DNA of 64,000 nt, from positions 2,432,001 through 2,496,000 of the forward strand of contig CBDBCY010000004.1 of NCBI GenBank assembly GCA_965203555.1, written 5' to 3'. Under the pieces are notes generated by a model that was not told where the DNA came from, made no database searches, and saw nothing but the letters and a program-made list of their open reading frames with translations. Below, in pieces: positions 7,627-27,623 of the stretch (within the stretch, counting starts at the first letter, position 1; every line of letters starts with the position of its first letter). Source of the DNA: Acidimicrobiia bacterium. GTDB taxonomy: Bacteria; Actinomycetota; Acidimicrobiia; Spongiisociales; ZC4RG35. A program made the translations under genes and the position numbers.

Positions 7627-10524
7627 ATGACAGCATGCATTGCTACGGAGGATGCGGATGAGTGCAAAGGTGAACCAGAGGTAGAGGATTTGGAGAGTGT
7701 AGGGGGTTCGAGTTTTTCAAGGCGGAAGAGGTCAGCGTCCGGGCGGGTGGCGTTCCTGGTGGGTGTCGCGGTGCTGTGCCTGTCGGCGGTTGTGCCTGTC
7801 GGTCTGCAGACACCCGTCCGGGCGTCCGGGGCGGCGGTTCGGGCTGTTACCGGAACGCCGGGCGCCGACGGGGTGGGTGACAGTTTCTTTCCCAAGCTGG
7901 GCAACGGCGGTTATGACGTAGCCCACTACCACATAGATATGGACATCGACATTTCCGACTTTTCGGTGGTGGCGGTCACCACCGTCACCGCCACCGCCAC
8001 CCAGGACCTGTCGGCGTTCAACTTAGACTTCAGCGGCTTGACCGTTAGCGCGGTGACCGTGGACGGCGCCGCGGCCGGGTTCTCCCGCAGCGGCACCGAG
8101 TTGACCGTCACCCCGTCCGCGCCCCTGGCTGATGAGAGCGAGTTCACCGTTGCGGTCAGCTATTCGGGAACGCCTTCTCCGACGCCCGACCCCGCCGCTA
8201 CTCACACCGACGGTGTCGGCTGGCAGACCCGCAGAGGCGCTTCCTATCCCTTGGGGGTTATCTTCGTCGCCAGTCAGCCGTCGGGGGCTATGACTTGGTT
8301 CCCGTGCAACAATCACCCGTCCGACAAGGCGACGTTCGAGTTCGAGATCACGGTTCCCGACACGGTTACGGCGGCTGCCACCGGAGTTCGCGAGAGCGAA
8401 GTCACCGCAGACGGCTTCACCACTTCCGTGTGGAAGATGGAGGATCCCATGGCCACCTACCTGGCGGCGGTGTATGTGGGCGACTTCCTGCGCCAGGAGG
8501 TCCGGGCCGGGGGCGATCCCCTGATTCGCAACTACGTTCACCGCGGCAAGTCGGCGCCGGGACTCTCCGTCGTGTCGGAGGCGCTGGCTCTTTTCGAGGG
8601 GATTCTGGGCGACTTTCCCTTCGACGTCTACGGGGGGATCGTCATGCCCTTCGACCTCGGATACGCCTTGGAGAACCAGACCCTGACTCTTTTCGGCGCC
8701 GATACCGTCGACGACGCTTTTATCGTGGCGCACGAACTGGCGCACGAGTGGTTCGGCAACTCCTCCTCGGTGGGGGACTGGAGCGATATCTGGCTGCACG
8801 AGGGCTTCGCCACATATTTGCACTACACGTACCTGGCCGAAAAACACAGCGTCAGTATGGATTTCTATATGGGCAGGAACAGGAACCTGGCCGTCAGAGC
8901 CAACGCGCAGCCGCCGAAAAAGATCTCCGTCTCCCAGATGTTCAACTGGTTTTCGGTGTATCTTCGCGGCGCTCTCACCTTGCACGCTCTGCACAGGGAG
9001 GTGGGTGACACGGTGTTCTTCCAAGTCCTCAGGGCCACGCACGATCGAACGGCGGGCGGCAACGTCAGCACGGAGAAGTTTCTGGGCATCGTGGAGGAAC
9101 TTGCCGACCGGAAGGCCGTGGCAGTGGTGAACAGTTGGCTCAACAGCGCCGCGGTCCCCAGGCTGAACGAGGCGCCCCGGTTCCCGGCTGCGGAGACGGG
9201 GCGGCGCGGCGTGGCCGAAGGGACCCCGGCGGGACGGGACATCGGAGTTCCCTTCACGGCTGTGGACCCCGACGAGGACGAACTGGTCTACACGGTATCG
9301 GGAAGGGACGCCGACCACTTCGAGTTCGACGCCGCGGCGGGGCAGTTGAGAACCAGGAACCCTCTCGACCACGAGCAGGATGCCAGCTACATGTTCATCG
9401 TCCGGGTCGCCGACCACAGGAACGACAGCAACCAGTACAACACGAGCATCGACGACACGATTACCGTCACCATCGATGTCATCAACGTCGAAGAGCCGGG
9501 TGTCATCGCTCTCTCCACGAAGGAACCGAGAGCGAATACCACCGTCAGAGCCGTCCTCGCCGATCCCGACGGTGGAATCTCGGGAGTCAGATGGAAGTGG
9601 GAGACTTCGGAAGACCCGAACGGGCCCTGGACCGAGATCACCGGCGCCTCCGGTAATGGGCACACACCGGCCGAACAGGATGTCGGCGGCTATCTTCGCG
9701 TGAGCGCCTCCTACACCGACCGGCATGGACCTGACAAGACGGCCGGTCCGGTCGCGAGCAACCGGATACTGCCCGCCAGAACCGGTGGAGGCGGGGGTGG
9801 CGGTAACGGGGGCGGTAACGGGGGTGGTGGTGGCGGTGGTGGCGGTGGCGGTGGTGGTGGTGGTGGCGGTGGTGGCGGTGGAGGCGTCGCCCCTGGAGAG
9901 GGCGGGGAGGAACCGCCGCCTCCCGCGTCGGAACTGTTCACCGACGTGGTCCCAGGGGTGTGGTACGAACCAGCCGTCACATGGATGATTCTCCACGAGA
10001 TCACCTCGGGCTGCGCCTCGGGGATGTTCTGCCCCGAAAGCGAACTTACCCGCCGGCAATTCGTCACATTCCTGTGGAGGGCCGCAGGTCGACCCGCCCC
10101 GACCTACAGAGGATCGGAGGCCTTCGCCGACGTAACAGAAGGCGAGTACGCCGACGAGGCCGTGGGCTGGGCGGTTTCCAACGGAGTCACGGTGGGATGC
10201 ACCGCCGGGAAGTTCGGCGATCCGGACTGGCGGTTCTGCCCCGCGGACCCGGTCACCCGAGGTCAGATGGCGACTCTCCTTTACCGACATGTGGATGCCG
10301 ACTATGAAGGAAGACCCCCTACCTACACGGATGTCGAACCCGGCAGGGTACACACCCGCGGCATCGTCTGGCTGACCGACTTCCAGGTAGTACCCGGGTG
10401 CGGGCCGAACCTGTTCTGCCCCGACCGCCACGCCGCCCGGGCAGAAGCAGCCTTGTTCATCAACGGGGTGGCCATCCGGCCGCACATCTGGGGCGAGGGC
10501 AACACCGCCCTGCTGCCGGACTGA
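7627..10524 (+). CDS. Secreted M1-family metalloaminopeptidase with cadherin-like domain, Gly-rich linker and C-terminal SLH-like domains (start may be downstream)
   Basis: GNGGYDV.HY N-terminus; YALEN; HELAHEWFGN...WLHEGFATY; cadherin-like A.DPD...LDHE...NVEEPG; SLH-like GC...FCP...VTRGQMATLL. Confidence 0.9.
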   Translation: MTACIATEDADECKGEPEVEDLESVGGSSFSRRKRSASGRVAFLVGVAVLCLSAVVPVGLQTPVRASGAAVRAVTGTPGADGVGDSFFPKLGNGGYDVAHYHIDMDIDISDFSVVAVTTVTATATQDLSAFNLDFSGLTVSAVTVDGAAAGFSRSGTELTVTPSAPLADESEFTVAVSYSGTPSPTPDPAATHTDGVGWQTRRGASYPLGVIFVASQPSGAMTWFPCNNHPSDKATFEFEITVPDTVTAAATGVRESEVTADGFTTSVWKMEDPMATYLAAVYVGDFLRQEVRAGGDPLIRNYVHRGKSAPGLSVVSEALALFEGILGDFPFDVYGGIVMPFDLGYALENQTLTLFGADTVDDAFIVAHELAHEWFGNSSSVGDWSDIWLHEGFATYLHYTYLAEKHSVSMDFYMGRNRNLAVRANAQPPKKISVSQMFNWFSVYLRGALTLHALHREVGDTVFFQVLRATHDRTAGGNVSTEKFLGIVEELADRKAVAVVNSWLNSAAVPRLNEAPRFPAAETGRRGVAEGTPAGRDIGVPFTAVDPDEDELVYTVSGRDADHFEFDAAAGQLRTRNPLDHEQDASYMFIVRVADHRNDSNQYNTSIDDTITVTIDVINVEEPGVIALSTKEPRANTTVRAVLADPDGGISGVRWKWETSEDPNGPWTEITGASGNGHTPAEQDVGGYLRVSASYTDRHGPDKTAGPVASNRILPARTGGGGGGGNGGGNGGGGGGGGGGGGGGGGGGGGGGVAPGEGGEEPPPPASELFTDVVPGVWYEPAVTWMILHEITSGCASGMFCPESELTRRQFVTFLWRAAGRPAPTYRGSEAFADVTEGEYADEAVGWAVSNGVTVGCTAGKFGDPDWRFCPADPVTRGQMATLLYRHVDADYEGRPPTYTDVEPGRVHTRGIVWLTDFQVVPGCGPNLFCPDRHAARAEAALFINGVAIRPHIWGEGNTALLPD
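9784..9885 (+). repeat. GGN microsatellite encoding poly-Gly linker
   Basis: (GGT/GGC)n run, ~34 codons. Confidence 0.9.
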
Positions 10525-10759
10525 GACCCCGACGGGTTGCACCTCGATCGTTTGCGCAAACCGAAGAGGCAACGCTGTCGCGATCAGCCATGAGGAAAGC
10601 CCTTTGATTGCCCGGCGGCCCCGGGGACTTCAACTCAACGGGCGAAACGCCCTCTCTCCTCCCGCCGCCCCGTCTTGTGCGGGTCGATCTCCCTCCTCGG
10701 GGGTTGCCGTTCGACCAAGCGGTCCCGGCTCTCGAGTCTGCGGCCGGTGCTGATGGTGA

Positions 10760-11290
10760 GTCACTCAGGGATGTTCTCCGACTCTGTTTTGTCCGGATGA
10801 GAAACTGACCCGTCAGCAGTTCGTGACGTTTTTGTGGAGAGCGGCCGGTAAACCCGCCGGTGAGTACACGGGATTCGAAGCGTTCTCCGATGTCGAGGAG
10901 GGGGTGTATTCGGACCGGGCGATCGGGTGGGCGGTGGCAGAGGAGATCACCTTGGGATGCACACAGGGGTCTTTCGGTACCGAGGACTGGAGGTTCTGTC
11001 CCCAACAGCCGGTCACCCGCGGTCAGATGGCTACTCTGTTGTACCGGCACACCGAAGCCGACTACGTTGGCGCTCCGCCTTCCTATACCGATGTGGCGCC
11101 CGACAGTTTCTACACGCCCGGTGTGTCCTGGTCGACCGATTTCGAAGTGGTGCCCGGTTGCGGTCCCGACGTGTTCTGCCCGGACCGGCCCGCCACCCGC
11201 GCCGAGGCGGCCCTGTTCATCAACGGAGTGGCCATCCGCCCCCACATCTGGGGCGAAGGAAACACCAGCTTCATACCCCAGCCACAATAA
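10760..11290 (+). pseudogene. Orphan 5'-truncated copy of the SLH C-terminal cassette
   Basis: Near-identical to ~21726-22250; begins mid-domain (VTQGCSPTLFCPDEKL...), no signal peptide. Confidence 0.75.
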
Positions 11291-11453
11291 AGCCGCCTAA
11301 ACCTTGGAAAAGGTTCGACCCACTGCCTGTTACTGCCCGCGGAGCATCACACGAACGTTCGTGATCTTCTGAAAATCCGGTAGGTTGGCTACGCCCTGTG
11401 TGGTGCGGCCGGGCCGATACCATTGGGTGCAGAATGCTCGGAAGGACCGCCGC

Positions 11454-12128
11454 GTGATCCGTACCCTCTTCGCTGTGACATCTGTTGTCCTGGTGGTTGC
11501 CGCCTGCGCCGGAGACGACCGCAATGCCGAGGTGGACGCCTCCTCCGCCGCGCCGTCCACCGCCACGACATCGACGGCGGCGAAAAGCCCCTCGACGCCG
11601 TCCACCACGACCACCATCGTTCAGCCCGCAGAACCCTCCACCACCACCTCCAAAGTGATCGAAGAAAGCCCCGCACCCACCACGACCACCACGACTGCAA
11701 CCACTGCCTTCGAGATATCCGACGACGTGCCCGACATCGAGATGTTCGACGTTGCCACCGGCTCGCTGGTCAGCCTGCGGTCGGTGGTGAAGGGGGAGAA
11801 GCCGCTGATGTTCTGGTTTTGGTCCCCTTTCTGAGAGACGTGCCAGGAGGAAGCTCCGGCCATCGAGCAGTTCGCTCGGGAAAATGCCCACCGCCTCACC
11901 GTGGTCGGTGTCGGCGCCATCGGCACACTGGAGGTCGCCCAGGAGTTGGTGGCCTCCAAGGGTGTCACCTTCACGGCGCTGTGGAGCGACTCACGCGACG
12001 CCTGGGATCATTACGACATGGACAGCACCTCCGATTTCCTGCTTCTGGACCGCTTCGGCGCCCGGCTCACCGAGGCGGCGCCCTACGACTCGGACCTCGT
12101 GGAGGAACTGCTGGACGAGTTGTTCTGA
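11454..12128 (+). CDS. TlpA/thioredoxin-fold lipoprotein, predicted selenoprotein (UGA 11832-11834, motif WSPF-U-ETC)
   Basis: Lipobox VAAC, Thr-rich linker, KPLMFWFWSPF*ETCQEEAPAIEQF...TVVGVG continues in frame to 12128; SECIS-like hairpins after UGA. Confidence 0.85.
11863..11881 (+). promoter_or_regulatory. Candidate bacterial SECIS hairpin (gene 1)
   Basis: CGAGC-AGTTC-GCTCG stem-loop within 19-mer starting 29 nt after UGA; second hairpin GCC-A-GGAG-GAAG-CTCC-GGC at 11842-11860. Confidence 0.55.
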
Positions 12129-12186
12129 TGTCGATCACCCGGCCCGGGGCGTGACCGCGTGACTATTCTCTTGCCAGTATTCACCG

Positions 12187-13293
12187 ATGAACAAATGTGA
12201 CCGTATCCGACCCGGCCCGCGGAAGCGGGGGAGACGTCGCCGTCGGTCGGGGGCGCCGCTGATGACGGTGGTGGTATTGCTGGCGGCGGCGGTCGCCACG
12301 GCGCCTGTGAGTGCCGCCGAGGGGTTCTCCGACGTGGACTCCGGCAATGTGCACGCACCGGCTGTCACGGCCTTGGCCGAGCGGGGAGTGTTCGCGGGCA
12401 CCGAATGCGGCGACGGCCTGTTCTGCCCCGACGACCCGATCGAGCGGTCGGTGATGGCGGTGTGGCTGATCCGGGCGCTGGGCGCCAGCCCGGATGCCGA
12501 CTCGTCCCGCTTCGCCGACGTGGAAGCCTCGGAGTGGTGGTCGCCCTTCGCCGAGGAACTGGCCGACCGCGGGATCACCAGGGGGTGCGCGACCGGCCCT
12601 CTCCGCTACTGCCCGGACAGTCCGGTCACCCGCGCCCAGATGGCCAGCTTCCTGGTGCGGGCCTTCGAACTGGAAAGCGCCGGGGCGGCCGGATTCGCCG
12701 ACACGGAAGGCAGCGGTCACCGACAGGATATCGACGCCCTGGCCGCGGCGGGGATCACCAGGGGGTGCGCGACCGGTCCCCTCCGTTACTGTCCGGACAG
12801 TGCGGTCACCCGCGCCCAGATGGCCACCTTCCTGCATCGGGCGCTGCTCCGACAGGAGCAGACGACCCCGATCAGCGACGACGTACCCGACGTGGACCTC
12901 ACCGACCTGTCCACCGCAGACACTGTCAACCTCCGGTCCCTCGTAACCGGCGACAAGGCGGTGCTGCTCTGGTTCTGGGCCGAGTGGTGACCGAGGTGCC
13001 GGGGCCATGCCCCCGAAGTCGAGCAGTTCGCTCGGGACAACGCCGACAGAGTCACCGTGATAGGTATCACCCCCGCAAACTGGGGAAGCACCAGAGCAGC
13101 CGAAGCCTTCGTGGCCCGCTATCGCCTGACCTTCGTCAATCTGTGGGACAACTCCGACGCCGCCTGGCGACACTACGGCAGCCCGTACACCTCCCAGTTC
13201 TGGTTGTTGGACCACAACGGCGACCGGATCGGTGACCGTGCCCGTGTTTTTTCAGCCTCCACGGTCCGGGGACTGTTGCGCTCCTTGGAGTGA
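12187..13293 (+). CDS. SLH-domain plus TlpA/thioredoxin-fold protein, predicted selenoprotein (UGA 12988-12990, motif WAEW-U-PRC)
   Basis: Signal peptide, three SLH-like repeats, KAVLLWFWAEW*PRCRGHAPEVEQF...VTVIGI in frame to 13293; alternative start ATG 12262. Confidence 0.85.
13019..13037 (+). promoter_or_regulatory. Candidate bacterial SECIS hairpin (gene 2)
   Basis: Identical 19-mer TCGAGCAGTTCGCTCGGGA at identical +29 offset from UGA. Confidence 0.55.
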
Positions 13294-13766
13294 TGATCAG
13301 CATATCGGAAGCCGGCCACTGCCGGCCGGTCGCCGACGCCGCACACTCCGTCCCATAGTCGCCACGCGGACCACACCCTGCTCTGGCATATCGAAGAACC
13401 GGGTCGCGAAACAAAGGGGACGGTGGGGGTTGACTCTGTCACAGGTCCCATGGCACATTGAGAGGGTCGAAACACCTCCCGGTCCGTTCCGACGTCGCAC
13501 GGGCCGCACAGGCGCTTCTGTGGACAGAGGGGTCATATTTCTTTCGGACGCGGGTCTCCCGGCGGGACCGGTCGGTTCGCGCTCGGTCCCTGGTTGGTTG
13601 GCGGCGGGGGAGGGCCCGAAGAGAGAAAAGACGGCCCGGGTTTTCGCGGGATAGGGGTTGGTTTCGCGGTCTCGCTCTGATCGGGAGCGACCTATCCGAC
13701 TCTTGTGGTCAGGCGATGGCGCGTAAATGCGAAAGCGCAGGTCACAGGCCTGCATGGAAAGGGCTT

Positions 13767-13834
13767 TGCCACGGTCTAAGCCCGAATCTGCCACGGTCTG
13801 AGCGCAAATCTGCCACGGTCTTGATCCCCCCTCA
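13767..13834. repeat. Three TGCCACGGTCT direct repeats at 22-bp period; probable transposon end
   Basis: Copies at 13767, 13789, 13811, followed by ...CCCCCCTCA (TG... on minus strand). Confidence 0.6.
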
Positions 13835-14135
13835 CCAGCACCTCACCGCCGCTCGGGCATTGAGGATGCTCAACCATCCGCCGGGTGGAACTGAAGCCAA
13901 CCAGCACCAGATCACCCTCACCACCCGACGCACGCCCCTCCAAGCCCGGATACTCGCCGCTATCGGAGTCAACACCCGCACCTGGGACAAAGCCACCATC
14001 GCCTAATCCCCATCGGCTCCAAAAATCCCGAATGTAGTGGAAATACCCTTCACGCGTATGCCCTCTGACCTGGGAAAACACCAAACCACCCGCCAAATTC
14101 GGGTCTGGGTTACGCAACCGACCGCGGCAGATGTA
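13835..14135 (+). mobile_element. IS remnant: transposase C-terminal fragment plus right end (IS1634-like)
   Basis: Fragment ...HQITLTTRRTPLQARILAAIGV...* then GTAGTGGAAA...TGACCTGGG...ACCGCGGCAGATG, resembling IS1634 right ends. Confidence 0.5.
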
Positions 14136-15609: not shown

Positions 15610-16419
15610 GTGACGAGGCGCTCTCTTGTGCGGATCGGCGTCGGCGCCACGCTGTTGGTCTTCCTGTTGGGCGGCGCTTCTTGGTGGTTCTCGGCCTCGC
15701 AGAAGTCGGGGCGGTCGACGGGTGGTGTGTCGGTGTCGGCCGATGCGGCGGCGGGGACGGCGGCGTCTGTTTCCTTCGAGTCGGCCGGGGTGCCCGAGAT
15801 CGAGCCGCTGATTGTGGCGGGCGACCTGGACGACGCATCGGCCGCGTTGCAGGAGGGTGAGAGAGCGGTGTTGCAGGTGGGTGAGAAAGTCGATCCCGGC
15901 GTTGATGAAGAGGGAGAGAAAGAGGCGCCGGCGCCGGTGGAGCCGGGACCGGCGTCGGGGGAGTCCTATACGTGGCATGACGGTGACCGCGCCCTGGTGG
16001 TGCGGTTGCAGCCCGACTTGGTGGTCCGGTCCGAGGGCGAGGGTATTTCCCGGGATGACATCGTGCCGGTCGGCGACCAGGGTGACTTCGCGGCGGTGCA
16101 GGGCGAGGCCGATGGCGTTGAGGTGGAGCCCCGCAAGGACCGGCCGGTGTTTCGTTCCGACGAGGGCGAGTTGATGGCGTTGCCGGGCGGTGTGGTGCTG
16201 GTGCTCGACCCCGGTTGGGACGAGGCGGCGGTGGACGCGTTTTTCGAGCGCAACGGCATCGCGTCTCGCCGCACGACGGCTCTCGATTACGTGACGAACG
16301 GGTTCTTCATCGAGACCGAGCCTGGTTTCGCGTCGTTGAACCTGGCGAACGCGCTGGTCGGCCAGGACGGTGTGGTGTTGTCCAGCCCGAATTGGTGGAA
16401 AGAAGTCGTCGCCGATTAG
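15610..16419 (+). CDS. Secreted protein upstream of S8 protease; possible external chaperone/propeptide-like protein
   Basis: N-terminal TM; YTWHDGDR, PVFRSDEGELMALPGGVVLVL, SSPNWWKEV; 10 nt before protease start. Confidence 0.7.
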   Translation: MTRRSLVRIGVGATLLVFLLGGASWWFSASQKSGRSTGGVSVSADAAAGTAASVSFESAGVPEIEPLIVAGDLDDASAALQEGERAVLQVGEKVDPGVDEEGEKEAPAPVEPGPASGESYTWHDGDRALVVRLQPDLVVRSEGEGISRDDIVPVGDQGDFAAVQGEADGVEVEPRKDRPVFRSDEGELMALPGGVVLVLDPGWDEAAVDAFFERNGIASRRTTALDYVTNGFFIETEPGFASLNLANALVGQDGVVLSSPNWWKEVVAD

Positions 16420-16429
16420 GCCGGCCTCT

Positions 16430-19400
16430 GTGTCTGACGTGTCGTTGAGTGGGTGGCGGGTTTGCCTCTGGGTGCTGTTGTTGCCGGCGTCGGCGGCGTT
16501 TTTGTGGCTGTTGGTGGGTGGCGCTCGGGCACAGTCGGTGGCTGCTCCGACGATCGACCATGTGGCGCCGGGTGACACGGGGCTGACGGTGGCCTGGACG
16601 GCGCCTGCGGGGGCGTCGGGGGTGGTGGCCTATGACGTGCGTCATATCCTGACCAGCGCCACCGACAAGTCCGATGCCAACTGGACGGTGGTGGACGAGG
16701 CGTGGACCGAGGGGTCTCTCCGGGTGATCCTGACCGGGTTGACCAATGGTGTCTCCTATGACGTGCAGGTGCGGGCCACCACTGCCGGTGTGGACGGCGC
16801 CTGGTCGAGCACGACCACGGGGACCCCGGCGGAGCCGGGCGATACACATGCGACAGCGGTCAGGTTCGTGGCGGAGCTGCCGGTGCGGGGCGTGCTGGGT
16901 CCGAACGACGACGTGGACTATTTCCGGTTCGACGTCTCCGGCACGGCCATCCGCGAGTACTACGTCTTCACTACGGGAGATACCGATACCTACGGCGAGT
17001 TGTACAACCAGAGCGGTGACCGCCTGAAGTGGTCCAATGACGCGTTTTTTGCGTCGGGTCCGTACAATTTGATGATGACCGGTCGGCTTTCGCCGGGTGC
17101 ATACTATGTCAGGGTGGAGGCGGGCCGTACCGGTGAGCAGGGTCCGTACACGCTGCACCTCGGTTTCCTGGCGGAGACCACCGGTTTGGCCAACGCCACG
17201 CCCGTCGGCCTCGGCGAGGTCGCACGCGGCGTCTTCAGCCGCGCCGGCGGCGCCGGCGTCACGGGAGATGTCGACTACTTCAAGCTGGTACTGTCGCAGG
17301 CCGCCGACGTGGCGGTGCGAGGCGGCGGGCTGGTGTCCGACACGACGGGCGCGATTCTGAATTCGAGCGGCGCCGAGATCGTCACCAGCGACGACGGGTG
17401 GCTGTGGCCCAACACCAGGCAGTTCGCCATGCGGACCCGACTGGCGGCCGGGACCTGGTACATACGGATCGAGCCATGGGTGAATCCGGTCGTACGGACC
17501 TTCGGCTTTCCGGCTCCGACCGGTTTCTACAACCTGTACGTGGACGCGGCGCCGGAGCCGGGCGGCACGACGACCGCGGCGGCCCGCCTGAGGCTGGGGG
17601 ACACCGGCGGCGGCAAGATCGACCCGGCCGGCGACGTCGACTTGTTCCGCATCGACCTCGACTCATCGGCGCGGGTGCGGATCTCGGCGGCGAGCCGCGA
17701 TGTCGACATCGACTTCGAACTGGCGGACCACAACGGCATGACGCTTGCCAACCATGTCTACGATGTCACTGTCGTCAACAGGAGTTCGGTAACTGTGGCG
17801 TACTACAACGTTCTCAGCGGCGGGTTGGCGGCGGGAACCTATTATGTGCGGGTCAGCGCCGAGGATCCGACCGCCACCGGTTCGTACCTGGTGCTGTTCT
17901 CGGACGACAGGGGCTATGATCGTCTCCTGCGTCACTGCCCGCAGGCGCCGGCCGGCATCGACGATCCCCTGTTCGGGTGCCAGTGGCATCTGGGCAACGA
18001 CGGCGGCCTGGGAGGCGTGGCGGGCGAGGACATCAACCTGGGCACGGCGTGGAGCACGACCATGGGCGCCGGCGTCAACGTGGCGGTGGTCGACAGTAGA
18101 CTCGACCCGTTCCATGAGGACCTGAGCGACAACGTGCTGCCGTCGCGCAATCACAGCTACGGTCCGGTCGGCCCGGTGGATAGACACGGTACTGCGGTGG
18201 CCGGTCTGATCGCGGCGCGCGACAACCAACTCGGCATGCGGGGGGTGGCGCCCCGGGCGAGCATCTACGGCTATGACCTGCTATCGGAGTTCAGCCTGGC
18301 GAACGCGGCCGACGCCATGGCGCGGGGACGGGTCACCACGTCGGTCTCCAACAACAGCTGGGGAACCAGCAGCGGTCCCTATGTCGGCCGCTCCTCCCGG
18401 CTGCTGGATCTGGCCATCGAGTCGGGACTGCGGGAGGGCGACGGCGGTAAGGGGGTGGTGTACGTCATATCCGCGGGCAACGACCACGGACAGAGCGGAT
18501 GGGCGTCGCTGGAGGAAATGGAAACCCATCACGGTTTCACCACGGTCTGCGCGGTGGACGCGTTCGGTGAGAGGGCGAGCTATTCCGAGCAGGGACCCAA
18601 CCTGTGGGTGTGCGCTCCGTCCGGGGTTCGGGCATCCAAGATTCGCCCGGACATGGCCACCACGTACAACTACAACCGCTACAGCGATGACTTCAGCGGC
18701 ACGAGCGCCGCCGCGCCGGTGGTGTCGGGGGTGGTTGCGCTGGTGCGGGCCGCGGGCCCCACGCTGACCTGGCGGGACGTGAAACTGATCCTGGCGGAGA
18801 CGGCCCGCAAGAACGACGCCTCGGACAGCGGCTGGCAGCGGGCGGGCCGCAGACGCGGCGGTGGTGGATCGACTCAGTTTTACGAGTACAGCCACAAGTA
18901 CGGTTTCGGGGTGGTGGACGCCGAGGCGGCGGTGCAACTGGCTGCCGGCTGGACGAATCTGCCGCCCATGCGCACCGCCGCCGTGACCTCGACCGGCGGG
19001 ACCGTGTCGGTTCCCGACAACGGAACGAGGGTTTCCCGGAGCGTGAAGATCGACACGCCGATCGATTTCGTGGAGCATGTGGAGTTGGACGCGTCGTTCC
19101 AGGCGCGGGCGTTCCGGGACCTGGAGGTGGAGTTGGTGTCGCCGTCGGGCTCGGTGTCGGTGCTGTCGAAACCCGCGGCGGACCAGTCTTGCCCGCAGTC
19201 GGGCGTCGGAGAGTGTGCTTTGGTGTCGCCGTTTCGGTTCGGCTCTGCCCGGCACCTGGGAGAGGACCCGTCGGGAACGTGGACCCTGCGGATGCGGGAC
19301 CTGCGGTCGGGCGGTCCGGTGTCGAGGCTGGATGGGTGGACGTTGACCGTGTACGGGCACCGTTCCGGGCCGGGGGCGCCTCCGTTGGGTGGGGTGGCGC

Positions 19401-22256
19401 CGGGCGACGGTTCGTTGACCGTGTCGTGGAGCGCTCCGTCCGATGCGGGATCTTCTGCGCTGACCGGCTATGACGTGCGTCACATCCGCAACGCCGCCAC
19501 CGACAAGTCCGACGGGCAGTGGACGGTGGCGGCGGACGCGGCGACGGCCGGTACGAACAGTTACACGATCACCGCACTCACCAACGGTATCCGCCGCGAC
19601 GTGCAGGTGCGGGCCAAGAACAGCACCCGCTCCGGGGTGTGGTCGGTGACCGCGGCGGGGACGCCGGGCGCTTCCAACGGTGTGCCGTTCTTCACCGACG
19701 GCGAGTCCGCCACCCGTACCGTGGAGGAGAACACCGATCCGGGCGTCGACATCGGCTCGGCGGTGGGGGCCCGCGACCCCGACGGCGACACGCTCTCCTA
19801 CACGTTGGACAGTTCAGGTGCGGCCTGGTTCGACATCGTGGCGTCCACCGGCCAGTTGCAGACCAAGGCCCCGCTCGACCACGAGACGCGGGGAAGCTAT
19901 TCGGTGACGGTCTCGGTGCGGGACCAAAAGGACGACGACAACGTGGCTGACACCGCGGTCGACGACACCGTCACCGTCACCGTGGCAGTCGGCGACGTGA
20001 ACGAGCCTCCGGTGGTGAGCGGGCCGGTCCGCTCTGAGGTTGCGGAGGGCAGCCGTAGCCTGGTGGGCGACTATTCGGCCGTCGACCCGGAGGGCTCTTC
20101 GGTCTTTTGGTCGTTGTCCGGCGATGACGCCGCCCTTTTCGTCATAACCAACAGGAGCGGCCTGTTGTTCTTGGACTTCGTGACGCCGCCTGATTTCGAG
20201 TCTCCTGCCGATTCTGATGGTGACAATGTTTACGACGTGACGGTAGAGGCGTTCGACGGTGCGGTGACGGGGATGTTGGACGTGGAGGTGACGGTCACCA
20301 ACGTGAACGAGACCCCGGTTCTGACCGGCCCGTCGACGGTCGAGGTCGACGAGGGAACCGCCACGACCGTGGCCGTTGCCACCTTCACTGTCACCGACCC
20401 TGACAACGACCCCATTACGTGGCTGCTCTGGGGCGAGGACCGGGACGATTTCAGCGTTTCCAATAGTGGTGAGTTGAGCTTCCGGGCGGTGCCTGATTTC
20501 GAGAACCCCGCCGACCGCAACCGTGACAATGTCTATTGGGTGACGGTTCGGGTGTCCGACGGGTCGGTCACCGTTTCGCGGCAGGCTAGGGTGAGGGTGC
20601 GCAACACCGACGAGGCCGGCTCGGTCACGCTCTCGCTGCTGCATCCCCAGGTCGGTACGCGGATCGGGGCTTCGCTTTCCGATCCCGACGGCGGCGTGAC
20701 GTCGGTTGCCTGGCAGTGGCAGTCGTCGTCCAACCAGCAGAACTGGACGGCGATCGCCGGGGCGACCGGGAGGAACTACACGCCGGTGGCGGCCGACGAG
20801 GGCCGGTGGCTGCGAGCGCGGGCGGGCTATCGGGACGGTGAGGGGTCCGGCAAGACCGCCGCCGCCGCGTCGGCGTCGGCCACCCGGGCCGCTCCCCAGG
20901 TGAACCGACCGCCCACGTTCGGCCAAGGCAGCGTGCAGCGCAGCGTCGCGGAGAACACGCCCGCCGGTCAGTCCGTCGGCGCCGCGGTTACGGCTAGCGA
21001 CCCCGACAACGATCTGCTCACCTACGCTCTCGACCGCAGCGGCCGCGCGTTTTTCGATATCGATCCGAATACCGGGGAGCTTTTGACCAAGGCGCCGCTC
21101 AACCACGAGACCCGCGGTTCGCACAACGTGCGGGTGACCGCCAGGGACCCGTCCGGGGCCGCCGCTTCTGTCACTGTGAACATAGAAGTGGTCGACGTCG
21201 ACGAGGACGGGACGCTCACATTGCCGACCAGGCAGTTGAGCGAGGGTCAGACGCTGTCAGCGACGCTCCGGGAGCCCGACACCGGCGTACGCGACCGGGT
21301 GTGGCTGTGGGAACAGTCCACCGACCGGAACAACTGGACGACCATCAGCGGCGCTACCGGGTCGAGCCTGCGGCTGACCGCCGATCACGTCGGCGACTGG
21401 TTGCGGGTCACGGTCACCTACACCGACACGCACGGCGCGGGCAAGACACTGGAAGCCGAAACGCCCAACAGGGTACAGGCGCGAACCACCGGCGGAGGAG
21501 GTGGGTCCCACCGGCGGCGGAGGAGGTGGTGGAGGAGGAGGAGGAGGCGGTGGAGGGGGCGGTGGAGGAGGTGGTGGAGGAGGTGGTGGAGGAGGTGGTG
21601 GGGGTGGTCCGGTTGATGATGGTGGTGGGTTGGACGTAGCGCCTCCCCGCGCTTCCGAGTTGTTCGAGGACGTTCCCGAAGGGGTGTGGTACGAGTCGGC
21701 GGTGTCGTGGATGATCCTCCACGAGGTCACCCAGGGATGTTCTCCGACCCTGTTTTGTCCGGATGAGAAACTGACCCGTCAGCAGTTCGTGACGTTTTTG
21801 TGGAGAGCGGCCGGTAAACCCTCGGGTGAGTACACGGGATCGGAAGCGTTCTCCGATGTCGAGGAGGGGGTGTATTCGGACCGGGCGATCGGGTGGGCGG
21901 TGGCAGAGGAGATCACCTTGGGATGCACACAGGGTTCGTTCGGTACCGAGGACTGGAGGTTCTGTCCCCAACAGCCGGTCACCCGCGGTCAGATGGCCAC
22001 ACTCCTCTACCGGCACACCGAAGCCGACTACGTTGGCGCTCCGCCTTCCTACACCGATGTGGCGCCCGACAGTTTCTACACGCCCAGTGTGTCCTGGTTG
22101 ACCGACTTCCAGGTGGTGCCCGGATGCCACCCCACCCGCTTCTGCCCAGAGCGGCCCGCCACCCGCGCCGAGGCCGCCCTGTTCATCAACGGAGTGGCCA
22201 TCCGCCCCCACATCTGGGGCGAGGGAAACACCAGCTTCATACCCGCCCCCGGCTAG
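16430..22256 (+). CDS. Large S8 (kexin-like) serine protease with FN3, PPC, P-domain, cadherin repeats and SLH anchor; frameshift at ~21503 in Gly linker
   Basis: Triad VAVVDS / HGTAVAG / GTSAAAP; P-domain (FVEHVEL...DLEVELVSPSG); ORF 16370-21616 and SLH ORF 21501-22256 join on removal of one G in GGTGGGTCCC. Confidence 0.88.
21491..21608 (+). repeat. GGN microsatellite poly-Gly linker
   Basis: (GGA/GGT/GGC)n run. Confidence 0.9.
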
Positions 22257-25982: not shown

Positions 25983-27623
25983 TCACCTCGTCATGAATGG
26001 AACGTATTCGGGTATTTCGCCAAGAAGGTAGGCGCCGAGCATCCTGGCCTGAACTTCGAAGACTCGGCGACAAGTTATCCGGTACTTGTAGGTGGGGTGC
26101 GTCACCTGTTGGTCGAGTCGGCGTTCGTAGGCTTTGATGAAGGTTCTCCGTCCCTGGCTGGTCAGTGCTACACCCTGGGCACGTATGACGAAGCCGCTTC
26201 TTCTTATCTCTTCATTGTTGATGAGGGTCAAGACGACCGATTCGGCAACAAGAGGTCGAAACTCCTCGGCCAAATCAAGCGCTAGGGCTGGCCGACCGAA
26301 TCTGGGACGATGGTAGACGCCGAGATATGGGTCGAAGCCCACTGCGAGGGCTGTGGCTGTGAAGTCTTTGACCAGCATCGAATACCCAAAGGACAGCAGA
26401 CAATTGACAGGATCACGCGGTGGTCGGCGGTTTCGGCTGTGAAAGTCAAAGGTGCCCAAGCTGTCGTTCTTGAGCATCGCGGCAAACCGGGAGAAGTACA
26501 GGCGGGCGGCGGTGCCTTCGATCCCCAGCAGAGATTCGATTGAGGGAGCTGATCTGGCTTGGCCGGCGAGAGTGTTGAGTTGGGCGAGAACGCGATCAAC
26601 ATCTACTCGGGAGTTACGTCGAAGAATTGTACGGGAGTTTCGGATCTTGCCTTCGATCATGCGTTGCGCAATGGGCAGTCCCGCCTGGGAGGCAATGGCT
26701 ACTTGGCGTCGTCGCAGTTCGACGTGTTTCGACGGCAAGCCGTGGGCGATGCCCTGGAACCAGCCTCCCCATGAGAACCAGCAGACCGGCGTTTCTCGCA
26801 TGAAGGCTGCCCGCATGAACTGGGAACTGATCTGGACATTGCCGTAGACCGATACCTGGGAGACATCGATCATGCGGACGGCCTTGATCCGCTCGTAGCT
26901 CTTGGACACCACCGCTCTGCCTCCCCTGATACCGATCCTCGCTCCCTGCTCTGTCACATACAAAGGACGGGCTGAAGGATCGCGGGGAACGAGGCGACGA
27001 GGCCGTTTGGCGGAGCGCTTTGTGTGCAGGTTGGTCTCGTCCGGGAGGCAGATGCCCACCAGCGAACACCTCGGACATTTCGGGCTATCGACCAATGGAG
27101 GTGGAGGTTCGGATTTCGAAGCGACCTGGCGCAACTCCTCGACAAGTTGGAGGGTCTTGGATATGAGTTGGTCATCGAAGGGAATTGTGACTCGCTGACG
27201 GATCTCTGCGAAGTAGATCTCTCCCTCAGAACAGTCGTAACCGTTGTCACGAAGCAAGAGACCGATCGCGCACAACTGAACGAGCTCTGGTGACCATGCG
27301 GGGCCATGCTTGGGCGGTCGACCCCGCTTAACCTCTACAGGAGTCACTTGGCCGTTCCCTCCCTCGATGATGTCTGCTTTGGCGATCAGCCCCAATCTTT
27401 CCGACCCCAACATCACAGACCGGGCCTTGCGCACGGGGTCTTCTTCCTCCGGTCCTGCGATCCGACCTCCCCCTGGATCAACGTTCCGATGCACATAACG
27501 ACCTTCCACCGTGTCGGGGTTGTCCACAAATCGAGACTGGACCCACTCCAAATAGAAAAGCCGCGGACAGTATTCGAACTCGTTGACCATCCGAGCCGGA
27601 ACCAAGGCCGGTACGTCAGACAT
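25983..27623 (-). CDS. cas1: Cas4-Cas1 fusion
   Basis: Cas4 YCPR...PVEVKRG...CPRCSLVGICLP; Cas1 LLGIEGTAARLYF...RRPPRDPVNCLLSFGY...LDLAEEFRP. Confidence 0.95.
   Translation of the reverse strand: MSDVPALVPARMVNEFEYCPRLFYLEWVQSRFVDNPDTVEGRYVHRNVDPGGGRIAGPEEEDPVRKARSVMLGSERLGLIAKADIIEGGNGQVTPVEVKRGRPPKHGPAWSPELVQLCAIGLLLRDNGYDCSEGEIYFAEIRQRVTIPFDDQLISKTLQLVEELRQVASKSEPPPPLVDSPKCPRCSLVGICLPDETNLHTKRSAKRPRRLVPRDPSARPLYVTEQGARIGIRGGRAVVSKSYERIKAVRMIDVSQVSVYGNVQISSQFMRAAFMRETPVCWFSWGGWFQGIAHGLPSKHVELRRRQVAIASQAGLPIAQRMIEGKIRNSRTILRRNSRVDVDRVLAQLNTLAGQARSAPSIESLLGIEGTAARLYFSRFAAMLKNDSLGTFDFHSRNRRPPRDPVNCLLSFGYSMLVKDFTATALAVGFDPYLGVYHRPRFGRPALALDLAEEFRPLVAESVVLTLINNEEIRRSGFVIRAQGVALTSQGRRTFIKAYERRLDQQVTHPTYKYRITCRRVFEVQARMLGAYLLGEIPEYVPFMTR

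Follow-up and report, generated by a model that had tools for sequence, protein, structure and literature searches.

Tandem thioredoxin-like genes with an in-frame UGA in a sponge-type Acidimicrobiia genome: probable membrane-stalked and wall-anchored selenoproteins

Introduction

A stretch of 64,000 nucleotides from the genome of an Acidimicrobiia bacterium (C4:2432001-2496000 of assembly GCA_965203555.1; this whole stretch is called the window) contains two adjacent genes, A and B, whose reading frames are each interrupted by a TGA codon at the active site of a thioredoxin-like (Trx-like) domain. The locus raises the question whether these codons end the two proteins or are read as selenocysteine (Sec, U in the motifs). 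A preliminary description, made from the letters of the window alone, had proposed Sec recoding, and the proposal was supported by the Sec machinery of the genome, by the pairing of Cys and TGA among relatives and by the conserved sequence downstream. Both are very probably genuine selenoprotein genes in which UGA is read as Sec. The source is a metagenome-assembled genome (MAG) of a sponge-type Acidimicrobiia, with a size of 3.42 Mb in 4 contigs, 95.2% complete and with 2.2% contamination.

Layout of genes A and B

Gene A starts at GTG 11454, with the sequence GGAAGGA eight bases before it. Its frame reads ...FWFWSPF up to the TGA at 11832-11834, continues in frame with ETCQEEAPAIEQFAR... and stops at TGA 12126-12128. 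The frame of gene B opens at ATG 12187, reads ...LLWFWAEW up to the TGA at 12988-12990, continues with PRCRGHAPEVEQFAR... and is closed by TGA TGA at 13291-13296. When read through, A and B match AhpC-TSA (PF00578) with 38.1 and 47.9 bits (Pfam cut-off 26) and Redoxin with 36.4 and 41.8 bits (Pfam cut-off 26.6). A PF00578 match above the gathering score and a U-x-x-C motif occur together in both genes (U-E-T-C in A, U-P-R-C in B). The TGA had been placed at the first Cys of a CxxC motif in each gene, which was confirmed by the reading frames, by the Pfam matches and by the corresponding column in the orthologues.

The N-terminal parts are different. Gene A has a signal peptide with the lipobox LVVAAC, read by eye, followed by a stalk in which Thr, Ser and Pro abound. 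In gene B, an Arg-rich signal peptide precedes an S-layer homology (SLH) region matching PF00395 with 51.1 bits (cut-off 20.8). Pfam gives two SLH stretches in this region; three repeats were read by eye, with two Cys in each of them. The earlier description of a lipoprotein with a Thr-rich stalk and a protein with three SLH-like domains agrees with these predicted features, of which the lipobox and the third repeat were seen by eye.

Gene callers end both genes at the TGA. In public annotation the gene is cut at the Sec codon and the stump is named ‘S-layer homology domain-containing protein’. The full length of gene B is matched by OZ242000.1 (83% over residues 1-368), and in a comparison with contigs of four DNA runs, contigs from two other studies (X4 record 11 and X6 record 16) cover the TGA at 11832-11834, with no difference there among the matches listed.

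Selenocysteine machinery and genetic code

Genes for Sec synthesis and insertion were found in the same assembly, all scoring above curated cut-offs, which settles the check on selA, selB, selC and selD that the preliminary description had proposed. The tRNA-Sec scored 78.7 bits (cut-off 47) and was called SeC with anticodon tca by ARAGORN. SelA scored 348 bits, the wing domain of SelB, which adjoins SelA, 60.6 bits and SelD 379.8 bits. SelA, SelB and SelD lie on contig C4, as does the window. The SelD gene (C4:2892774) has one in-frame TGA in the motif GAGUGCK, and the SelD of this genome is therefore itself a selenoprotein. Sec machinery is reported for all 84 complete genomes of Actinomarina, likewise Acidimicrobiia (bioRxiv 10.64898/2026.04.03.716425), and an enrichment of SelA and SelB is reported for sponge symbiont bins (PMC5649159).

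TGA is not reassigned in this genome, where it is an ordinary stop. Nine other genes of the window with Pfam support are free of internal TGA, six of them end with it, and the own stop codon of gene A and of gene B is TGA as well. These data also served to weigh whether the UGA might be decoded by a suppressor tRNA, or as Cys or Trp, instead of as Sec. At low selenium such misreading to Cys or Trp can occur, and Cys is tolerated at this position in two homologues described below (L042 and P0017). Against this stand the ordinary use of TGA as a stop in the window, the location of the recoded codon at exactly the redox-active position where use of Sec is known, and the presence of both a dedicated Sec machinery and structured RNA after the codon, which make such a reading highly improbable.

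A second tandem pair of UxxC genes with in-frame TGA is located outside the window at C4:856438-857411 (L037 and L038). Their motifs are FWAEW-U-PAC and FWAEW-U-PTC, and both products are predicted lipoproteins with Thr-rich stalks. The genome holds at least four UxxC thioredoxin-like selenoproteins, plus SelD.

Conservation of the UGA codon and of the downstream sequence

Relatives were collected with a six-frame search of 61 related genomes (this one included), with the Trx domain of gene B as query, and further ones with a scan of one genome per species. Orthologues of the SLH type were found in 11 other genomes and orthologues of the lipoprotein type in five other genomes. The SLH-type sequences, with an identity of 50-74%, have TGA in the U column in 10 of the 11 genomes; the eleventh, L042 (OY760694.1), has TGC and forms a Cys/Sec pair with the others. 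All five lipoprotein-type orthologues have TGA in this same column. A TGA that recurs in one column in all close orthologues examined but one excludes chance.

In a maximum-likelihood tree, L042 is sister (89/88) to the Sec-containing L046, in a clade otherwise made up of Sec forms only. Because of this nested position, replacement of Sec by Cys appears the likeliest event in L042. The lipoprotein clade is monophyletic (100/99) and nested inside the radiation of the SLH type, which points to an old duplication after which both copies inherited the Sec codon of one ancestor. The two TGA codons had been taken as independent events, in which a nonsense mutation at the same catalytic codon would be unlikely to occur twice. 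This part of the argument does not hold, since the genes are old paralogues with a shared ancestral Sec codon. What does argue for Sec is that both lineages have kept TGA over a long time.

Among the best 120 database matches to gene B, three are full-length Cys forms with CxxC (P0017, P0034 and P0062). Nearly all of the other 117 consist of the SLH domain only and are mostly 240-290 residues long, and where a source name is given, it is ‘S-layer homology domain-containing protein’ or ‘hypothetical protein’. The two of these short proteins that were read back, P0027 and P0085, end exactly at ...FWAEW. A pairing of Cys with TGA, for which homologues were to be aligned, was found in the TGC of L042, in the CxxC of the three full-length forms and in the corresponding Cys of the structures 1LU4 and 3IOS.

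The sequence after the UGA was found to be conserved and not decayed. The downstream frame is open for 99-113 codons in all 12 SLH-type sequences, ending at the homologous ...L(E/D) position, and for 97-105 codons in the six lipoprotein-type sequences, again with a homologous end. For the SLH type, the median ratio of nonsynonymous to synonymous substitution rates (dN/dS; Nei-Gojobori) is 0.37 downstream (range 0.16-0.69 in 66 pairs) compared with 0.30 upstream. For the lipoprotein type it is 0.02-0.30 downstream (15 pairs) and 0.08-0.48 upstream. These values show purifying selection on the downstream part like that on the upstream part.

These results also bear on the possibility that A and B are decaying pseudogenes, with a nonsense mutation at the catalytic codon of each. 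The stops of the gene callers at both codons would agree with decay, as would the SLH-only relatives with their ends at ...FWAEW and the remnant of a truncated SLH gene just upstream (10823-11290). Decay would not be expected to leave TGA in place at this codon in 15 of the 16 orthologues found in other genomes, or downstream frames of 97-113 open codons whose dN/dS is well below 1, or a full Sec machinery in the genome. This explanation is extremely improbable.

One in-frame TGA was counted in 42 of the 150 thioredoxin-like matches listed, spanning 31 of the 61 related genomes; this is a count by hand, individually checked in L014-L020, L027 and L037. The statement that selenoproteins are uncommon in actinobacteria thus does not apply to this branch. 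The named records are Acidimicrobiia MAGs, several of them labelled Candidatus Spongiisociaceae or Spongiisocius. The family Spongiisociaceae is named from sponges (PMC11384910), and the DNA runs that contain the locus are labelled as sponge, coral and marine metagenomes.

The A/B pair is arranged in tandem in six genomes: this one, G003 (L039), G006, G056 (L047) and those containing L040 and L041. In L040 (OZ253564.1, Candidatus Spongiisociaceae) three UxxC genes follow each other at 1368, 2515 and 3832, one of the lipoprotein form and two of the SLH form, with TGA in the same column throughout. Orthologues of gene A keep the lipobox Cys and have Thr-rich stalks that vary in length. In the lipoprotein-type orthologues and the other paralogues outside the SLH type, the lipobox ends, read by eye, are FAS-C, IAG-C, VAA-C, LTA-C, AAA-C and VSS-C, and all non-SLH paralogues examined are predicted stalked lipoproteins.

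Fold and comparison with known families

The Trx domain of gene B (residues 226-368, with the U position entered as Cys) was modelled with AlphaFold as a single compact domain with a pLDDT of 96.1. The best structural matches are 1LU4 (E 6.9e-13, TM 0.78) and 3IOS (E 7.0e-12, TM 0.82), followed by ResA 1SU9 (E 1.7e-10), StoA and the pneumococcal surface lipoprotein Etrx1 4HQS (3.2e-8). The best sequence matches are also 1LU4 (8.8e-15) and 3IOS (1.5e-13). The U of gene B stands opposite the first Cys of WCPFC (1LU4) and of WCPTC (3IOS); in the family alignment A2, the U of gene A falls on the first Cys of the CxxC motif. The model superposes on 1LU4, 3IOS and ResA with TM 0.78-0.82, and the N-terminal strands and the central insert of the TlpA/ResA/DsbE subfamily are present. 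The fold had been called TlpA-type, which is right for the broad subfamily; the nearest solved relatives are DsbE (MPT53) and DsbF, not TlpA.

This compact domain is also evidence on true termination at UGA, in which the N-terminal pieces would be functional and the downstream part made separately from an internal GTG or not at all. Termination competes with Sec insertion in all bacteria, and some truncated product is likely for that reason. Frames from an internal GTG exist at 11901 and 13057, and downstream fragments of 78 aa are predicted as proteins in public data (P0003-P0005). A cut at the UGA would split both the active-site motif and the one compact fold, conservation from the UGA to the internal GTG is as high as elsewhere, and the Cys forms are single full-length proteins. 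Termination as the normal fate of both messages is, on this evidence, very unlikely.

An oxidase role is attributed to DsbE (MPT53, 1LU4) and DsbF (3IOS) of Mycobacterium tuberculosis. They are likewise actinobacterial and secreted, and share with A and B the context WFW..WCP(F/T)C..EAP, in which U-P-R-C of gene B takes the place of C-P-T-C in DsbF. They differ in having Cys and not Sec, in the absence of SLH repeats and in an identity of 26-28%. They also keep the cis-proline, as QP in 1LU4 where the window proteins have TS. ResA, StoA, TlpA, CcmG and Etrx belong to the same fold subfamily and are extracytoplasmic, often lipoproteins, with a reductive function fed by CcdA or DsbD. In contrast to ResA-type systems, no gene for cytochrome maturation, Sco or Msr is present near A and B, and CcdA is encoded about 1.8 Mb away.

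Curated models place A and B far below the cut-offs of the named families. The NCBIfam ResA model NF002854 gave 26.2 and 34.1 bits (cut-off 170) and the DsbE (CcmG) model TIGR00385 gave 20.6 and 24.5 bits (cut-off 123.15). A and B thus belong to the broad TlpA/ResA/DsbE subfamily and not to the named ResA or DsbE families. The ResA-like WAxxUGC selenoproteins (NF041054) likewise have a ResA-like fold with Sec after W-A-x-x. Membership in this family was rejected as well, as gene B scored 18.9 bits against a cut-off of 300 and its motif is WAEW-U-PRC and not U-G-C.

The class that agrees best is that of the Prx-like thiol:disulfide oxidoreductase selenoproteins (PF00578, UxxC or UxxU), which are listed as ‘predicted with high confidence’ (PMC13188914) and counted in 28 organisms (PMC5029168). 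Common to this class and to A and B are the AhpC-TSA/Redoxin fold, Sec as the first residue of U-x-x-C, a hairpin resembling the bacterial Sec insertion sequence (bSECIS) and the existence of Cys homologues. A and B differ from the class in being exported and anchored (one as a predicted lipoprotein on a Thr-rich stalk, the other by three SLH repeats), in forming tandem paralogues, in their occurrence in sponge-type Acidimicrobiia and in having Ser for the cis-proline. In a full-text search of the literature, no paper was found that joins SLH domains or lipoprotein signals with the Prx-like selenoprotein class. A and B are new members of the known UxxC Prx-like class. Their architecture, wall-anchored in one and membrane-stalked in the other, is new, whereas the kind of system is not.

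RNA structures after the UGA

Two hairpins lie within the 50 nucleotides (nt) downstream of each UGA. The bSECIS model, as given in the legend of Fig. 2 of PMC13188914, has a loop of 3-9 nt with G in the first two loop positions, a stem of 4-16 bp, a distance of 16-37 nt from the UGA and a minimum free energy (MFE) of -7.5 kcal/mol or lower. As a control, the protein was kept unchanged while its synonymous codons were redrawn, and the fraction of these recodings at least as stable as the natural sequence is reported.

Hairpin 1 begins 10-12 nt past the UGA and differs in sequence and register among orthologues. In gene A its energy is -10.5 kcal/mol compared with a mean of -4.4 for the synonymous recodings (fraction 0.023). 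Across the orthologues, the pair 16-24 is GC in 6, CG in 4, GU in 4 and AU in 2, which are compensatory changes. In the x/y paralogues, which have a common register, both sides change in 3 of 7 pairs, and 97.1% of the cells are paired as opposed to 43-60% when the partner is slid. Hairpin 1 stands out against synonymous recodings in 10 of 23 Sec genes, gene A included.

Hairpin 2 encodes (V/I)EQFAR, and its loop starts 34 nt after the UGA in both genes. With a loop of 5 nt, a stem of 6 bp and G followed by U at loop positions 2-3, its shape is within the bSECIS model. The stem columns are identical in all 20 SLH, mid, x and lipoprotein sequences, and all 20 use GCU for the Ala codon, which makes up 10.8% of the Ala codons in the verified genes of the window. 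Hairpin 2 is more stable than its synonymous recodings (fraction 0.05 or lower) in 18 of the 20; the fraction is 0.027 for gene A and 0.013 for gene B, where the energy of -7.9 kcal/mol compares with a mean of -3.0. Only the divergent Cys forms P0034 and P0062 have lost the EQFAR stretch, with MERFAT and MAKFAE in its place. Hairpin 2 is probably the likeliest SelB site, with hairpin 1 as a putative helper.

Hairpins were also observed after other Sec codons of the genome. SelD has the same layout of two hairpins and, at 32 nt from the UGA, a GGUGC loop in the second one; in L037 and L038 the first hairpin has an AGUUG loop, 16 nt from the UGA. A genome-wide search located the core of hairpin 2 at four places; judged by eye from the flanks, an in-frame UGA precedes the two window copies only. 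Neither this core nor the hairpins with a 5-bp stem and an AGUUN loop, which were searched for as well, gave a lineage-wide SECIS consensus.

A number of observations weigh against this account of the two genes. In gene B, hairpin 1 does not surpass its synonymous recodings (fraction 0.31), and the register of hairpin 1 slips among orthologues, with 66.5% of the cells paired in one fixed register. The stem of hairpin 2 alone has -7.1 kcal/mol in both window genes, against the limit of -7.5; only when a 21-nt piece is folded does the MFE (-7.7 and -7.9) come within this limit. In a strict bSECIS scan, 16 of the 23 Sec genes had all four features of the model and the window genes fell outside it by energy only. 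Being invariant in the 20 sequences, hairpin 2 offers no covariation. It is kept at the nucleotide level in the recent Cys form L042, and P0017, also a recent Cys form, keeps the EQFAR peptide, so that the conservation of hairpin 2 could partly be a protein constraint on EQFAR. A scan of 11000-14000 with Rfam (E up to 10) gave no SECIS family and two matches at chance level; bacterial SECIS elements are described as barely covered by Rfam (bioRxiv 10.64898/2026.04.03.716425). The assembly is only a MAG, with the tRNA-Sec on a different contig (C2). As regards function, Ser replaces a Pro facing the active site in 19 of 24 aligned sequences, both window genes included. We take this Pro to be the cis-proline of the thioredoxin fold. 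It is kept only in the five x/y paralogues, the variants with Ser being TS, NS or WS. The Cys forms P0034 and P0062 have Ser at this position too, and the change is therefore not tied to Sec.

With these points considered, Sec insertion remains the strongly favoured reading of both codons. SelB with Sec-tRNA(Sec) would read the UGA at 11832 and at 12988 as selenocysteine. The RNA structure in the 50 nt after the codon would direct the recoding, the likeliest SECIS being UCGAGC-AGUUC-GCUCGG with a second, GC-rich hairpin before it.

Genomic context

The features of both genes and of the two large surface proteins nearby are listed in Table 1.

Table 1. Positions of genes A and B, their parts and neighbouring surface-protein genes in the window.
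Feature	Position	Strand	Remarks
M1 aminopeptidase	7627-10524	+	cadherin domain, ~45 Gly/Asn residues, SLH repeats
Gene A, predicted lipoprotein UxxC thioredoxin-like selenoprotein	11454..12128	+	224 aa plus stop
Gene A Cys18, end of signal peptide and lipobox	11505-11507	+	lipobox LVVAAC at residues 13-18, read by eye
Gene A stalk, Thr/Ser/Pro-rich	about 11508-11714	+	~65 residues
Gene A Trx-like domain	11715-12125	+	
Gene A predicted Sec codon UGA	11832..11834	+	first position of U-E-T-C
Gene A hairpin 1	11842..11860	+	GCC-A-GGAG / GAAG loop / CUCC-GGC
Gene A hairpin 2, best bSECIS candidate	11863..11879	+	UCGAGC / AGUUC loop / GCUCGG
Gene B, predicted SLH-anchored UxxC thioredoxin-like selenoprotein	12187..13293	+	368 aa plus stop
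Gene B signal peptide, Arg-rich	about 12187-12315	+	
Gene B SLH repeats	12322-12486, 12508-12675, 12691-12852	+	residues 46-100, 108-163, 169-222
Gene B Trx-like domain	12862-13290	+	
Gene B predicted Sec codon UGA	12988..12990	+	first position of U-P-R-C
Gene B hairpin 1	12998..13016	+	GGGGC/CAU/GCCCC or CGGGG/CCAUGC/CCCCG
Gene B hairpin 2, best bSECIS candidate	13019..13035	+	UCGAGC / AGUUC loop / GCUCGG
S8 subtilase	16370-21616	+	1748 aa; fn3, PPC, P-domain, Big_9, cadherin domains

The surroundings of A and B form a cluster of surface-protein genes. Upstream are genes for a two-component system and for the M1 peptidase, which has a cadherin domain and an SLH anchor; downstream are those for a cadherin-domain protein and for the S8 subtilase. 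Each SLH repeat of the M1 aminopeptidase, like each repeat of gene B, contains a pair of Cys, and because of these pairs the SLH wall anchors may be disulfide-bonded. The ORF at 10823-11290 (forward strand) repeats the SLH end of the M1 peptidase gene in truncated form, with a nearly identical C-terminus (...ALFINGVAIRPHIWGEGNT...). Homology extends upstream of this ORF across two TGA codons, for which reason the region 10604-11290 looks like a decayed partial duplicate of the peptidase gene.

At 14-15 kb the G+C content falls to 0.555, from about 0.65, and small reverse-strand ORFs in this part are interrupted by TGA. It is about 0.57-0.61 from 23 kb on, and a gene for a Cas4-Cas1 fusion is located at 25983-27623 on the reverse strand.

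The neighbourhood was compared by tblastn of 10 window proteins with 14 orthologous loci and by Pfam analysis of 40 of 63 flanking ORFs. The orthologous flanks carry transposases, methylases, dehydrogenases, and LRR or SLH proteins. What is conserved as a unit is the gene pair itself.

Elsewhere in the genome, one CcdA-type gene, one DsbB and two DSBA-like genes were found; a search of this 95%-complete genome for VKOR and Thioredoxin_4 gave no match. A polysaccharide pyruvyl transferase (PF04230, 110.9 bits) at C4:508834, a candidate only for the wall-polymer (CsaB) role, supports the anchoring of gene B along with the SLH match.

Proposed role of the two proteins

The recoding signature, the fold and the signals for export and anchoring are observed features of the two genes, and a role can be proposed from them. 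The products would be thiol-disulfide oxidoreductases that are exported, belong to the DsbE/DsbF-ResA-TlpA branch of the thioredoxin fold and have U-x-x-C as their active site. The product of gene A would be held at the membrane as a lipoprotein on its Thr-rich stalk, and that of gene B in the cell wall by its SLH repeats. We infer that they act on cysteines of cell-envelope proteins; the surface proteins of the locus are rich in Cys, with two in each SLH repeat.

Formation or isomerisation of disulfides is, by a small margin of preference, the probable function, since DsbE and DsbF are the nearest relatives. A reductive role in which the proteins are fed by CcdA is possible and would be the less expected one, and a peroxidase-like role is improbable. 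These assignments are weakened by the surroundings of the genes. No gene for a redox partner is present near A and B, the CcdA, DsbB and DSBA-like genes are all far from them, and the neighbours differ at every orthologous locus, with nothing in common beyond SLH similarity. A and B as the sole oxidases of the genome was rejected as an option, since DsbB and two DSBA-like matches exist.

A more speculative and rather unlikely proposal concerns the tandem arrangement, which might represent a two-tier redox relay across the monoderm envelope or a wall enzyme recharged by peroxide. In the relay, the flexible stalk would let the lipoprotein carry redox equivalents back and forth from CcdA or DsbB, as its membrane partner, to the SLH enzyme, which, fixed in the wall, would be unable to reach the membrane; selenocysteine would make the exchange sufficiently fast. 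In the alternative, selenocysteine would allow peroxide to recharge the wall enzyme directly, leading to disulfide formation on the Cys-rich surface proteins of a sponge symbiont.

Significance

Genes A and B would add wall-anchored and membrane-stalked forms to the known UxxC thioredoxin-like selenoproteins. Extracytoplasmic Sec enzymes appear to be recurrent in the sponge-type Acidimicrobiia, with four in this genome and TGA-interrupted relatives in about half of the 61 genomes. Because public annotation systematically cuts such genes at the Sec codon, the surface redox capacity and the selenium dependence of these symbionts are probably under-counted. The AGUUC hairpin at 34 nt together with its helper hairpin, mirrored in SelD, may serve as a SECIS model for this lineage. 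Both proteins are also candidate targets for the enrichment of SelA and SelB reported in sponge symbionts (PMC5649159).

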